Assembly (NCBI GenBank): GCA_947085185.1
Contig: CAMTVK010000008.1
Coordinates: 1-16,902, forward strand
Direction of reading: 5' to 3'
Source of the DNA: Candidatus Fraserbacteria bacterium
GTDB taxonomy: Bacteria > Bipolaricaulota > Bipolaricaulia > RBG-16-55-9 > DRXL01
Length of the DNA: 16,902 bases
Shown here: positions 142 to 12,895 of the stretch, one piece after another
Layout of the letters: every line of letters begins with the position of its first letter
How positions within the stretch are numbered: the first letter of the stretch is position 1
Translations under genes and position numbers: made by a program
The notes under the pieces: generated by a model
What the model was told of the DNA's origin: nothing
Databases searched by the model: none
Seen by the model: the letters and a program-made list of their open reading frames with translations, nothing else

Positions 142-1027
142 GCAGCAGCTGCAGTGGCAGACGGACTGGGGCAGCGAGTGGGGCGGGGAGAGCTTGGCGA
201 AGATTGAGCGGCTGAACCGCAAGTTCTTTGAGCCCCTGGGAGCGAAGCTGGTGCGCTTCCCCCTGGGGAGGAAGGGCTACAACGGGCGTGTGGAGAGGAG
301 CCATCGCACCGACGACGAGGAGTTCTACCTGCCGCTGTTGGAGCGAATCCGGGACGAGCGGGAGCTGGTGCGGCAGGCGGCGCAGTGGCTCTACTATTAC
401 AATGTGGAGCGGCCTCACAGCGGAGCAGGGATGGATGGACTGAGTCCGTGGGGCAAGCTGCGCGAGCTGGGGGTGAAGGTGCCTGCGGAGTTTGCAATGC
501 TGCCGCCCATTGTGTTAGATAGGATCTCGACCGATTGGGTCCTGGGCCCTGGTAACAATCTCTTGACCCATTACAGGGTGGCTGGCTCAAGCTGCTTGCA
601 ATTTGGGGCTGCTCTGCGGCCCCGCTGCCCCGCTCACCTTGTCTGCTTCCCAGAAAGTGTGAACAGGGCGAGATGCCGGTCATTTGCTTCTAAGCCGGGG
701 ATGGGCGATATTAAAGAGATGCTTAAGCTTCTCTTCGAGGGCGGGACCATAAAGGTAACCGGCTCAGATGCGGCAGGGCCGCCGCCTCAAAGGCACTACC
801 TGGAGATCGTGGGCTTCTGGACGCCGGAATATTTGCAGAAAAAGCTGGCCAAGCTCAGAGCTGCTCAGACGAAGATGCTCATCGCGGTGGATAAGAATCT
901 GAAGTGCACAGAGGAGGAGCTGGGCGAAGGCAAAGAACTGTTTCGTGCGACACTGCTAGCGCGAACGCGCACGAGCGGCCTCGCCGCGGCCCCTACTTAC
1001 GCAGCTCGACCAAACACATCGGGATAA
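2..1027 (+). CDS. IS481-family DDE transposase, C-terminal part (continues from 16193), with ~150-codon read-through past the IS end
   Basis: Motifs QTDWGSEW (second D), [10 protein letters not shown] (E) and YYNVERPH. Same frame as the ORF that runs off the right edge of the window. No stop codon until 1025..1027. Confidence 0.88.
547..575. repeat. IS481 right inverted repeat
   Basis: Reverse complement TGTAATGGGTCAAGAGATTGTTACCAGGG aligns with the left-end sequence TGCGCCAAGAGATCGTTACCAGGG. Confidence 0.8.
719..945 (+). pseudogene. Remnant: DUF790/Bax1-like C-terminal fragment preceded by a probable XPB-like helicase N-terminus
   Basis: [21 protein letters not shown] resembles the conserved [11 protein letters not shown] motif of DUF790 nucleases. 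[13 protein letters not shown] resembles N-termini of the XPB/Rad25-like helicases usually paired with them (weaker match). Far too short to be either intact gene. Confidence 0.6.
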
Positions 1028-10016: not shown

Positions 10017-12895
10017 GGCGACACCACCGGTTGCAAGATGAGAAGTCCTAAGAGATCTGGGGGAAACTGCGGCTTTACCTCAAGCCCGCGCACGCGCAGC
10101 GACACCGCTTGCCGGATGCGCTTGTGGGCGTCGGTCAGTTCACGCGCCCGGCGCACCACGCGCTCCCGGATCGCGCTTTGCAGCGGATGGGCCATGCCCC
10201 AGTTGTCCGCCGCGTCGCACCACTCGCCCAAGCTCCCGAGCGCCCGCTCGACCAGCTCCCGCTTTTCGCGCAGAGAGATATTGGCGTCCGGCTTGGCCTC
10301 GGCCAGAAGCCGAAGCGCGTCACGGGCTTCCAGCCATTTGGCATCGCCCCCTGCCGATCCAACGAAGCCCAGCACCAGCACCTCTTCGGAGAGCAGGGGT
10401 CGCGCCTGGGGTTGCTCGACCAGGTAGCGCACGCGCAGCAGCAGGATCGTCGTGAGTTCCTGCACGGCGCGGGTGCGCAAAACACCGCAGCGCGAGGCGG
10501 TGGCGTGGCCGCGCCGGCTGAGCGCTTCCTCGAAGAGGAACCGCGCCAGTGTGGTCACGAAGCGGTGGTTGCGACCGATGTATTCAGCTCCCTCGGGGGT
10601 GGGCGAGTCGAAACTGATGAGCCACCGTCCGCCCTTGCTTGGGGGCAGGGCCAGCCGAATCGGCTCAGGAAGTGTCGCAGTTGCCTCCGGGGTCACGGTC
10701 ACCCGGAAGACGCCCGGCCGGCGGTCCGGGGTAACAGTGAGGCCGATTCGCTGAGCCGCGGCGAGGACAAACTCGCGCACCGCGCTGGGATCGCCGAGCA
10801 CCGCGTCGGTTGCCTCGAGTTCGCGCTTTACTTCCTCGGGCTTGAGCGCGCGCTGCGCGAACCGGGTGCGGTTGATCCTCTCACGCTCCGCGTCCCGTTC
10901 CCAGCGCCGATGCAACTCGTCGACCTGCGGAACCCCGAGGTCCAACACGAGCTGCCGCTCGGCCGCTTTCCGCCCGCCGCGAAGGAAGAGCGCTTCGAGC
11001 ACGGCCTGGGTGACGCTTTCGCTCTCTTCAGGCACTGGCACGTGCGTGCCCAACGTGCGGTGGATCTCCCGCGCCTTGTCGAGGAGCACTTCGATCACCA
11101 CGCCGTCCACGGGGTTGTCTCGCCCGAAGAAGCGAATGGCCTTGACCTGCTTGGCAGACTGCCCGTAGCGGTCCACCCGTCCCTCGCGCTGCTCCAGCCG
11201 GTTGGGGTTCCACGGGAGATCGTAGTGAACGACGGCAGTGAACTTCTCCTGGAGGTTCACGCCCTCGGAAAGGCAGTCGGTGGCGACGAGCAGGCGCGGG
11301 CGGCTGAGATCGATCTCGTCTATCTTGGCTTGTCGCTCGTCGTCGCCCATGCGGCCGGTGACGCACACCACCTGGACCTCAGGCCCCAAGCGCTGTCGCA
11401 AGTGCTCGGCGAGGTACTCCGCGGTCGCTACGTACCGGCACCAGAAGATCGGATGGAAGCCTTCCGCCACCAAGTTCCGTGCGATCTCGATTGCTCGTTC
11501 GAGCTTGGCGTCCTCGGCCGTACCGTAAAGCTGCTCGGCGAGTCGCGCGAGTTCTCGCAGCTTGCGGCGGTCACCATCGGCTAGGGTCTCGGCCGCGGCC
11601 CCGACGGCTGGCGTGGGCGCTTCGTCATCGGTACGATCCTCAGCCGACTCGAACACGAAGGAACCGTATTCTGGTGCATCCTCTTCTGCCGGCATGAAAC
11701 CCGCGCGATTGGCCAGCGCTGCCAGCGCCGCCGCCGGACTGGACATCACGCACCGCAGGAGCGCCAGCGCCCCCCAGTAGCGCACCCGGCGCTTTCGCTC
11801 CTCGAGGTGCTCGCCCGTTTGCACAATCTCCGAGCAAAACGCGTACGTGCGCTCGAACAGCCCCCGGTACGGACCCGACAGTTCGTAGGTCTCGTCCACG
11901 GGTTCCCGCTTGGGGAAACAAGGGCCGGCTTCCCAGGTGTGCTCGATATCGCGACGCGTGCGCTGCACGAAATGGCGGGCCAACTCGATGCGCTGGGCTT
12001 CGTCCAGTTCGCTGACATTCCACGTGGCGAACTCCGGGCGCATGAGCCCGAGGAGCGAACGGAAGGCCTCCTCGATGCCACTATGCGGCGTGGCGGTGAG
12101 GAGGATCAGGTGCCGGTTTGGGTTCTTGGCTACCTCTTCCAAGAGCGCGTGCCGTTCTTGTTGCCGTTGCCCCGACGCAGCCGCTGCACCGTGCACCTCG
12201 TCGACGATCACGAGTTCGGGACAGAACTGCAGAAACTGGTGCCGGTTGCGTTCGGTCTTGACGAAATCGATGCTCGCCACCTGGACGGGGAAGTGCTCGT
12301 AGATACTCCGACCGAAGGGCTTCTGCCGCTCGAGCTGTCCCACTGTCCCCGAACGTATCACCACCGGGTCGAGGTTGAACTTCTCGTCAAGTTCCTTGGC
12401 CCACTGGTCGCAGAGGTACGGCGGGCAGAGCACGCAGAAGCGCTGGATCTCGCCGCGATCGAGGAGTTCCCGGGCGATGAGCAGTGCCTCGATGGTCTTC
12501 CCCACCCCCACGTCATCCGCGATGAAGAGCCGCACCGGGTCCAGACGCAGGGCCATCAGGAGCGGCACGAACTGATATGTCCGCGGCCGGATCGAGATGC
12601 GCCCCAGCGACCGAAACGGGGTGGCGCCCTCGCGGAGCGTGAGCCGCGCCGCCTGCCAGAGGAGATGCGCGCTCGCTGCGTCCGACACGTCTTCAGCAGT
12701 AGGAAGAGGAAACGCCGCGGGCTCAACCCGCTCGAACGACAGGTCGTAGCCCACGAGATTCATGAGGCCCCTGTGTACCTTGACGACGTCGTCGGTCGTG
12801 CCGGTGAGCGGGCGGAGCGCGAAGACCTCGTCTGTCTCCGCCGGCAGCAGAACCCACTCGCGGTTGCGGCAGCGGACGATCGAGCCGGGATTCAT
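10013..12895 (-). CDS. SWI2/SNF2-family helicase (DrmD-like), ~960 aa
   Basis: IADDVGVGKT, DEVH, LTATPH, ATDCLSEGVNLQ, HYDLPWNPNRLEQREGRVDRYGQ. AAAGGAGG RBS favours ATG 12895 over GTG 12904. Confidence 0.93.
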   Translation of the reverse strand: MNPGSIVRCRNREWVLLPAETDEVFALRPLTGTTDDVVKVHRGLMNLVGYDLSFERVEPAAFPLPTAEDVSDAASAHLLWQAARLTLREGATPFRSLGRISIRPRTYQFVPLLMALRLDPVRLFIADDVGVGKTIEALLIARELLDRGEIQRFCVLCPPYLCDQWAKELDEKFNLDPVVIRSGTVGQLERQKPFGRSIYEHFPVQVASIDFVKTERNRHQFLQFCPELVIVDEVHGAAAASGQRQQERHALLEEVAKNPNRHLILLTATPHSGIEEAFRSLLGLMRPEFATWNVSELDEAQRIELARHFVQRTRRDIEHTWEAGPCFPKREPVDETYELSGPYRGLFERTYAFCSEIVQTGEHLEERKRRVRYWGALALLRCVMSSPAAALAALANRAGFMPAEEDAPEYGSFVFESAEDRTDDEAPTPAVGAAAETLADGDRRKLRELARLAEQLYGTAEDAKLERAIEIARNLVAEGFHPIFWCRYVATAEYLAEHLRQRLGPEVQVVCVTGRMGDDERQAKIDEIDLSRPRLLVATDCLSEGVNLQEKFTAVVHYDLPWNPNRLEQREGRVDRYGQSAKQVKAIRFFGRDNPVDGVVIEVLLDKAREIHRTLGTHVPVPEESESVTQAVLEALFLRGGRKAAERQLVLDLGVPQVDELHRRWERDAERERINRTRFAQRALKPEEVKRELEATDAVLGDPSAVREFVLAAAQRIGLTVTPDRRPGVFRVTVTPEATATLPEPIRLALPPSKGGRWLISFDSPTPEGAEYIGRNHRFVTTLARFLFEEALSRRGHATASRCGVLRTRAVQELTTILLLRVRYLVEQPQARPLLSEEVLVLGFVGSAGGDAKWLEARDALRLLAEAKPDANISLREKRELVERALGSLGEWCDAADNWGMAHPLQSAIRERVVRRARELTDAHKRIRQAVSLRVRGLEVKPQFPPDLLGLLILQPVVSP

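Follow-up and report, generated by a model that had tools for sequence, protein, structure and literature searches.

A three-gene operon of Candidatus Fraserbacteria assigned to ARMADA type I, a predicted anti-phage system

Contig CAMTVK010000008.1 of a Candidatus Fraserbacteria assembly (GCA_947085185.1) carries, within the 16,902 nucleotides analysed here (the window), adjacent genes for an SNF2-type ATPase, an adenine methyltransferase and a giant YprA-family helicase. The question raised by this locus is whether the trio forms a new defence system, a rearranged DISARM or a copy of something already described. The preliminary description implied novelty, with the caveat that the architecture matched ARMADA and had to be checked against that work. 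The caveat was right and the novelty fails: the trio is almost certainly ARMADA type I, in the order armA-armB-armC. That system is already described and named (Bell et al., 2025; bioRxiv 10.1101/2025.09.15.676423; PMC12458937), and the window operon is another copy, not a new system.

Operon layout and placement within ARMADA

The three open reading frames lie on the same strand with zero internal stops (Table 1). ATGA stop/start overlaps join armA to armB at 10013-10016 and armB to armC at 6078-6081, which, together with the catalytic motifs present, confirms the earlier report of three intact, ATGA-chained genes. An Rfam scan at gathering thresholds and an ARAGORN scan of the window gave no match.

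Table 1. Features of the window and the models on which their annotation rests
Feature	Position	Strand	Basis
armA: SNF2/RapA-like (BrxHII/DrmD-like) ATPase, 960 aa	10013..12895	-	Pfam, PADLOC and NCBIfam models
armB: PglX/DrmMI-like adenine methyltransferase, 1,312 aa	6078..10016	-	Pfam, PADLOC models, motifs
armC: YprA-family SF2 helicase with zinc modules, OB-CON-DUF1998 (MZB) and predicted C-terminal Vsr-type nuclease, 1,694 aa	997..6081	-	Pfam, predicted fold
GmrSD-family type IV restriction gene, 615 aa (accessory, outside ARMADA)	13115..14962	-	Pfam GmrSD_N and GmrSD_C
Type I hsdM remnants, either side of the GmrSD gene	12969-13110, about 15000-15136		
Phd/YefM antitoxin and PIN (VapC) toxin pair (accessory)	15266..16034	-	Pfam PhdYeFM_antitox, PIN
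Sigma70-like promoter upstream of the VapBC pair	16073-16045		TTGACG-17-TATAAT, 11/12
IS481-family element, 5' part	16082..16902	+	NCBIfam transpos_IS481
IS481-family element, 3' part (integrase core, right end at 575)	1..575	+	Pfam rve_3

Six of the 12 relatives that were looked up in Table S1 of Bell et al. (2025) are entered there, on the same contigs, as 'ARMADA Type I helicase', and their identities to the window ArmC are 75% (L019), 70% (L022), 69% (L037), 66% (L035), 65% (L027) and 64% (L026). The remaining six were absent among the Table S1 rows listed, in which type I entries reach at least row 5014; Thermus TthTF19_20730, 48% identical, is also labelled type I. In two quick helicase trees, the first without and the second with DrmA, the window ArmC fell among the table-labelled type I helicases with SH-aLRT support of 96-100. 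In the tree without DrmA it was nested with them in a 17-row clade (SH-aLRT 100), outside which fell the E. coli type II ArmC, DruE and the short YprA helicases. The YprA-family tree proposed earlier as a check thus groups ArmC with ARMADA type I and not with the short YprA clade. Counting against this grouping, a Pseudanabaena helicase listed as type I lies outside the window clade on a long branch. DrmA sits on a very long branch in the second tree, and its position there is not evidence.

The window shares with ARMADA type I a BrxHII/RapA-like helicase and a PglX-like methyltransferase encoded by linked genes, A-B-C order, and a YprA helicase whose single chain includes DUF1998 and ends in one Vsr domain; no defining difference was found. 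The type I order is given as C-A-B, or reversed A-B-C in many archaea and cyanobacteria (Bell et al., 2025; PMC12458937), although the reversed order also occurs in records from Planctomycetota, Acidobacteriota, Verrucomicrobiota, Chloroflexota, Gemmatimonadota and Alphaproteobacteria.

Conservation of the trio, another check proposed at the outset, holds across phyla: among the 24 informative ArmC loci (those with at least 9.4 kb upstream), armB lies upstream of armC in 21 and both partners do in 20. The three loci with no armB within 10 kb upstream have a truncated armC (L021), a frameshifted armC (L048) or a possibly short flank (L039). Genes for TIR, Argonaute, HEPN, PIN, GmrSD or AAA ATPase proteins often stand between armB and armC in relatives. 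No match to ArmD, searched with a single E. coli query, was found in 31 loci with at least 3 kb downstream, and this genome holds just one UvrD-like match (24%), outside the window operon. Downstream of the window armC lie a DUF790 remnant and then the IS end, with no ArmD gene.

Protein domains and the predicted defence mechanism

ArmA carries DDVGVGKT (127), DEVH (232) and motif VI (563), and matches Pfam SNF2-rel_dom and Helicase_C as well as the PADLOC models DpdE (2e-184) and DrmD (2e-88). It is 43% identical over residues 4-956 to a Nocardioides type I ArmA-like protein and 25% identical over 3-616 to E. coli type II ArmA.

In ArmB both methyltransferase motifs are intact (DPACGSGHF at 495, NPPW at 751), and the protein matches Pfam Eco57I and N6_Mtase, PADLOC DrmMI (4e-90) and type IIG models. 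Compared with 15 homologues, its mean identity is 61-82% in residues 1-560, highest in the motif I block (mean 82%), and 24-47% in 881-1312; the N-terminal half is kept among homologues and the C-terminal region varies or is replaced. The variable region is likely the target-recognition region. At loose Pfam thresholds the N-terminal region matched MmeI_hel in 12 of 21 proteins and MmeI_N in 2 of 21, so that a dead type IIG nuclease domain in ArmB is no more than a possibility. Solved structures yielded no phmmer match to ArmB, and only noise (E>0.3) against a profile of its N-terminal region.

ArmC contains TSGTGSGKS (109), FDELH (231) and QRSGRAGR (999), with Pfam DEAD, Helicase_C and, at residues 1455-1545, MZB/DUF1998 (E 4.6e-10). 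A zinc-binding beta module in RecA2 is represented by invariant CxxC pairs at 454-457 and 556-559 and a strand-rich stretch at 410-550, and the coiled-coil extension before the OB module by long helices at about 1097-1192. Helical segments at 318-398 and 613-760 occupy the places where BrxA-like and MarR-like inserts are expected; Foldseek with the whole model returned helicase cores only. The nearest solved relative of the helicase is Druantia DruE (9tu7, E 3e-41), and the DruE models are also the best PADLOC matches (E 1e-90, against 3e-13 for DrmA). The predicted model of residues 1050-1694 aligned with MrfA 6znp (Z 12.3, rmsd 4.4, 235 aligned), DrmB 7s9w (Z 11.8, rmsd 4.2, 278 aligned), I-Bth0305I 3r3p (Z 9.4, rmsd 2.8, 90 aligned) and Vsr 1cw0 (Z 8.4, rmsd 2.4, 90 aligned). 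The C-terminal model also aligned with 3hrl (Z 7.8, rmsd 2.8, 84 aligned), the entry given for type I ArmC by Bell et al. (2025). A predicted Vsr-type nuclease fold at the C-terminus, spanning about residues 1595-1691, is supported by these models; the protein ends right after this single domain, whose D1631, D1643, G1644 and H1647 are invariant in 34/34 homologues. The DUF559/Vsr-like nuclease proposed initially therefore stands by predicted fold but is weak by sequence, since Pfam DUF559 matches ArmC at E 0.0086, under its cut-off (4/34 homologues match at E<=0.05). Bell et al. (2025) label the type I Vsr domain 'active?'.

Because type II defends, an anti-phage function is inferred for type I, and by this analogy the operon at this locus is very probably anti-phage. 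In the literature searched for ARMADA, with subscription journals mostly outside its coverage, we found no experimental study of type I; both experimentally tested systems are type II (Bell et al., 2025; PMC13463889), where ArmD is essential.

The route of defence could be restriction-modification-like and non-abortive, directed against phage DNA. ArmB would mark host DNA by adenine methylation at a short site, which its variable C-terminal region would specify. On incoming DNA, ArmC would engage exposed ends or single-stranded structures and translocate 3'-to-5', like other YprA helicases, and its Vsr-type domain would cut when the mark is absent. ArmA would couple reading of the mark to ArmC action through ATP. 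We lean only slightly towards this particular mechanism of a methyl mark and cutting of unmarked DNA. Protection by type II is lost in Walker mutants of ArmA and of ArmC and in an ArmB NPPW mutant, and infected cells remain intact (Bell et al., 2025; PMC12458937). Among related systems, DruE binds ssDNA that is exposed and has 3'-to-5' unwinding activity, and recognition of 5' overhangs in unmethylated DNA has been described for DISARM.

It is also possible, if rather doubtful, that the same type I system distinguishes self from non-self by DNA structure (ends, single-stranded gaps), in which case ArmB would be chiefly a scaffold that reads sequence, and methylation would contribute little. 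The type II ArmB SAM-binding GxG mutant loses activity only partly, and no demonstration of host methylation by ArmB was found in the available parts of that study (Bell et al., 2025; PMC12458937). ArmC is expected to recognise DNA structure and not sequence in the EHEC paper (PMC13463889), and DruE acts on ssDNA with DruH as its only partner. However, the NPPW mutation kills type II defence, and the intact ArmB motifs and strong conservation of the motif I block argue against this reading.

Contig context and mobility

With a GC content of 64% against 57%, the operon looks recently acquired. An exact 141-nt terminal repeat (1-141 = 16762-16902) closes the contig, which is loop-assembled, and the IS481-family element runs through this repeat into the start of the window, with inverted arms at 547-570/16088-16111; the right ends of the genome's IS copies align at 575. 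Contig depth is chromosome-like, and the proteins scanned included no recognisable replication gene. In run X3, one contig has a left IS half of the C16 type continuing into a right half of the window type, though contigs built from short words cannot phase this repeat. The GmrSD gene was rejected as a core ARMADA component: Pfam GmrSD adjoins armC in 2/43 loci, and the window gene gave no tblastn match above 60 bits in the 43 ArmC loci.

A tentative reading is that the operon may represent a type I subclade that hops between phyla and can swap its methyltransferase specificity regions, and that this minimal, cargo-free form may move together with GmrSD and VapBC on a composite transposon or a circle bounded by IS481. 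The IS, 8 bp upstream of the sigma70 promoter, would keep the whole block transcribed. If true, this would provide an insertion-sequence route for ARMADA spread, unlike the tRNA-integrating elements described, and would pair defence against unmodified with defence against hypermodified phage DNA.

The same context bears on whether binning misplaced the contig, or whether the operon is a decaying relic without current function in this host, which we regard as improbable. The tetranucleotide correlation of 0.80 and the deviating GC point that way, as do the hsdM and DUF790 remnants flanking the operon and the broken armB or armC copies found in relatives. Nevertheless, the three frames and their motifs are intact across 11.9 kb, and the contig's IS family and tRNA-Asn-proximal sequence recur on further contigs of this genome. 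Run X1 gives similar long-piece depths, 474-781 for the contig and 478-776 for C1, a rough comparison as X1 may be the source.

Relation to other YprA-family systems

ARMADA type II (E. coli NCTC 12900, ATCC 8739, EDL933) is the experimentally validated relative, with the same gene order and domain types. It differs in having a fourth, essential gene, ArmD (UvrD/GajB-like with RelE), and in its ArmC, which at about 2,110 aa is longer, has additional EEP/Vsr domains, is only 23-34% identical to the window ArmC, in patches, and lies on a separate tree branch. Type II has been described in tRNA-integrated phage-like elements, whereas the window lies on an IS481-bounded contig. Druantia (types I-III) contributes in DruE the nearest solved helicase but has other partners (DruH among them), PLD or inactive Vsr ends, no linked SNF2-methyltransferase pair and separate branches.

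Kinship with class 1 DISARM, as first proposed, fits in part. Both have homologous SNF2-like helicase and adenine methyltransferase genes, of apparently shared ancestry (the DrmD and DrmMI models match), a YprA-family helicase and a DUF1998 module. The idea of a fusion of DISARM parts, however, is backwards, because YprA proteins usually carry helicase and OB-CON-DUF1998 on a single polypeptide, and it is the DISARM lineage in which they are split (Bell et al., 2025; PMC12458937). DISARM divides helicase (DrmA) and DUF1998 (DrmB) between genes, where the window has both in one 1,694-aa frame; it also has the PLD nuclease gene drmC and, in its helicase, EVE-like and trigger-loop parts, neither of which was called in the window. 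That the operon is nonetheless a divergent class 1 DISARM, in which DrmA has merged with DrmB and DrmC has given way to a Vsr domain, is very unlikely. The DrmD and DrmMI matches and the alignment of the ArmC C-terminal model with DrmB would suit it, but the ArmC helicase is far nearer DruE than DrmA, and the catalogue, which files close relatives as ARMADA type I, largely refutes it. Every NCBIfam DISARM model falls below cut-off (DrmD reaches 331 bits on ArmA, against 610), consistent, at the level of models, with the prediction that DISARM rules would miss the operon. The reported absence of a PLD gene also holds: no PLD family was found in the 9 window proteins scanned or in 139 neighbour ORFs from 43 loci.

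It is scarcely credible that ArmC is a housekeeping MrfA/YprA-type DNA repair helicase lying by chance beside a restriction-modification gene: although homologous to MrfA by sequence and fold, it is more than twice as long as relatives' short YprA-like proteins (a separate clade with support 100 and branch 2.05, in a different neighbourhood, called housekeeping from their size), its linkage to armA and armB is conserved across phyla, its base composition is foreign, and 13 genomes of the same genus (61-95% complete) yielded no full-length orthologue.

In summary, the operon carries little weight as a discovery, the system being already named and catalogued, and its value is that of a test specimen: a three-gene, translationally coupled type I copy without ArmD. 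Such a specimen could reveal whether type I protects in the absence of ArmD, whether ArmB methylates a site that its variable C-terminus determines and whether the single Vsr domain acts as the cutter. Because several close relatives come from hot-spring lineages, its proteins may also suit structural work.

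Assignment of the operon to ARMADA type I

A preliminary description of this DNA had read armA, armB and armC as three intact genes chained by ATGA overlaps, and both junctions, armA/armB and armB/armC, were found at the positions it reported. Domain searches matched its SNF2 ATPase, adenine methyltransferase and helicase-DUF1998 assignments, and by motif inspection Walker A/B and motif VI are intact in both helicases, as are DPACGSGHF and NPPW in the methyltransferase ArmB. In agreement with the reported lack of a PLD gene, the PLD family was absent from the nine window proteins scanned.

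Features of the operon and its upstream region
Feature	Position	Strand	Remark
armA, SNF2-type ATPase, 960 aa	12895-10013	minus	frame without internal stop
armB, adenine methyltransferase (Eco57I/PglX/DrmMI kind), 1,312 aa	10016-6078	minus	frame without internal stop
armC, SF2 helicase, MZB (DUF1998) domain at residues 1455-1545, 1,694 aa	6081-997	minus	frame without internal stop
type I hsdM remnants	12969-13110 and 15000-15245		either side of GmrSD gene

Bell et al. 2025 (bioRxiv 10.1101/2025.09.15.676423) define ARMADA by the association of a YprA helicase with a PglX-like methyltransferase and a BrxHII-like helicase. We retrieved 43 loci whose helicases are close relatives of the window's ArmC and checked 12 accessions against Table S1 of that study. 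Six are listed there as "ARMADA Type I helicase" on the same contig (with identities to the window's ArmC of 75, 70, 69, 66, 65 and 64%), and the other six were not found among the 34,868 rows covered. In a quick IQ-TREE tree of helicases (34 rows, 678 columns), the window's ArmC sits with the labelled relatives in a 17-row clade with support of 100, which includes eight rows labelled type I from Table S1 (the Nocardioides type I row being matched by organism, not locus tag); a ninth listed type I protein lies outside it on a long branch. DruE, ten short YprA-like proteins and E. coli type II ArmC (so labelled by its gene order) stand apart from this clade; the separation from the short proteins, presumably housekeeping YprA enzymes, argues against a grouping with such enzymes. 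A second tree with DrmA added gave the same local placement, DrmA itself being unplaceable there.

The labels and the clade bear out an earlier suspicion that this is an ARMADA system, and the operon almost certainly belongs to type I. It is therefore a further member of an already described system rather than a novel one, and the union of helicase and DUF1998 in one chain, previously singled out as a fusion, is the family norm.

Neighbourhood of armC in related loci

At least 9.4 kb upstream of armC was available at 24 of the 43 loci. armB lies upstream of armC in 21 of them, and armA and armB keep the window's order in 20, so that the trio, whose conservation had been left to be surveyed, is conserved elsewhere. 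At the three loci without armB, armC is either truncated and set among CRISPR genes (L021) or frameshifted (L048), or else the upstream region may be cut by the flank (L039). Downstream of armC, where at least 3 kb of sequence was available at 31 loci, neither ArmA nor a match to the E. coli ArmD query was found.

The 139 ORFs neighbouring ArmC homologues include TIR, Argonaute, HEPN, PIN, GmrSD, SocA, AbiEi and AAA ATPase genes, many placed between armB and armC, and none of the PLD family. The armB-armC gap is below 10 nt in five of the 25 loci with an armB ORF, and the window's operon is among the few without cargo there. At individual loci, the truncated armC has a RAMP gene on one side and a Cas3 gene on the other (L021:7508-15170), a RAMP match (L059:2915-3304) or a Piwi-domain Argonaute with a Ymh-like gene (L055:7364-9843) separates armB from armC, and a similar-looking Argonaute/Ymh-like pair precedes armC (L039:242-2724). 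On a Nocardioides plasmid (L061 and L065) ARMADA type I adjoins DISARM genes and precedes McrBC-like genes, and on a Pseudanabaena plasmid (L067) it stands tail to tail with a Druantia III-B helicase.

Genomic context and the IS481-family element

The window is the entire contig C8 of a 1.7-Mb genome (G000), with 64% GC against about 57% for the genome. A full-length ArmC orthologue occurs in one of 40 related genomes (G032, 44%, helicase-first order) and in none of 13 same-genus genomes (61-95% complete), and in the tree the closest neighbours of the window's ArmC come from Cyanobacteriota, Nitrospirota and Verrucomicrobiota. The GC contrast, the rarity of orthologues and the phyla of these neighbours fit a recent gain of the operon by horizontal transfer. 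The operon is preceded on its own strand by Phd-VapC, an hsdM remnant and a GmrSD gene; sequence from upstream of hsdM, together with the final bases of a tRNA-Asn-like end, matches the hsdM island beside tRNA-Asn on contig C1 (G000:C1:68665-70388), whose own hsdM seems to lack its motif I segment.

An exact 141-nt repeat at both contig ends (1-141 = 16762-16902) lies inside an IS481-family element, through which C8 is assembled as a loop. Long-piece depths in sequencing run X1, which may be the source, are roughly similar for C8 and C1. We prefer to read the window as a chromosomal IS-cargo-IS block that collapsed during assembly; a free circle is less favoured. Contig C23 of this genome also has a terminal repeat, common to the end of C28. 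The transposase frame (16223-16902, 142-1027) stays open throughout the element and continues into a DUF790 remnant (680-1027), of which a genome search with the DUF790 fragment found no further copy in G000.

In the window (16045-16111) and in other copies, the element's left end is placed upstream of an outward-reading sigma70-like promoter, at a distance of 7-9 nt (mostly 8); this placement occurs in G000, G001, G002, G004, G012, G016 and G019. With a threshold of at least 10 matches to the 12 consensus positions, promoter-like sites accompany 11/14 left ends in G000, versus 1/9 right ends and 24/20,000 random sites, and 12/22 IS ends in six other genomes (loci retrieved for 22 of 26 matches). 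Promoter targeting is known for Mutator-like TnGBS/ISLre2, at 15-17 bp (PMC3942029); titles and abstract starts yielded no case for IS481.

The predicted ArmC nuclease domain and a possible mechanism

The DUF559/Vsr-like nuclease proposed for ArmC found little backing in sequence, the DUF559 match falling below the cut-off (E 0.0086), and gained it from a predicted Vsr-type fold and invariant residues. In an AlphaFold2 model of residues 1050-1694 (34 sequences, mean pLDDT 85.6), the segment resembles MrfA (Z 12.3, rmsd 4.4, 235 residues aligned) and DrmB (Z 11.8, rmsd 4.2, 278 residues), and the last 100 residues resemble I-Bth0305I (Z 9.4, rmsd 2.8, 90 residues), Vsr (Z 8.4, rmsd 2.4, 90 residues) and 3hrl (Z 7.8, rmsd 2.8, 84 residues). 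These Z values are middling, yet the modelled C-terminal domain is small and almost wholly covered. D1631, D1643, G1644 and H1647 are invariant in 34/34 sequences and, by the Vsr/DUF559 motif, are presumably catalytic.

In ARMADA type II every gene is required, Walker and NPPW mutants lose protection, a GxG mutant loses it in part only, and infected cells remain intact (Bell et al. 2025). Deletions in EHEC confirm the gene requirement, and the EHEC system does not protect against hypermodified Straboviridae (PMC13463889). By analogy with these experiments, the window's operon very probably has an anti-phage function. DruE is a 3'-to-5' unwinding enzyme that binds exposed ssDNA, and overhangs in unmethylated DNA are the described recognition target of DISARM (10.64898/2026.05.13.724758).

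ArmB would mark self DNA with m6A, ArmC would load on invader DNA structures, translocate and cut, and ArmA would couple the two; we lean slightly towards this mechanism as a whole. Across 15 homologues, ArmB residues 1-560 are conserved (block means 61-82%), and the region after about residue 880 is variable or replaced (24-47%), as would be expected of a swappable specificity region; for ArmB of L055, identity is 78-92% across most N-terminal blocks and drops to 3-23% beyond residue 800. The main rival, in which self and non-self are told apart by DNA structure only, could accommodate the partial effect of the type II GxG mutation, but the loss of protection in the NPPW mutant speaks against it (Bell et al. 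2025). Because our literature search found no experimental study of ARMADA type I, the compact operon of the window is a useful specimen of this type.
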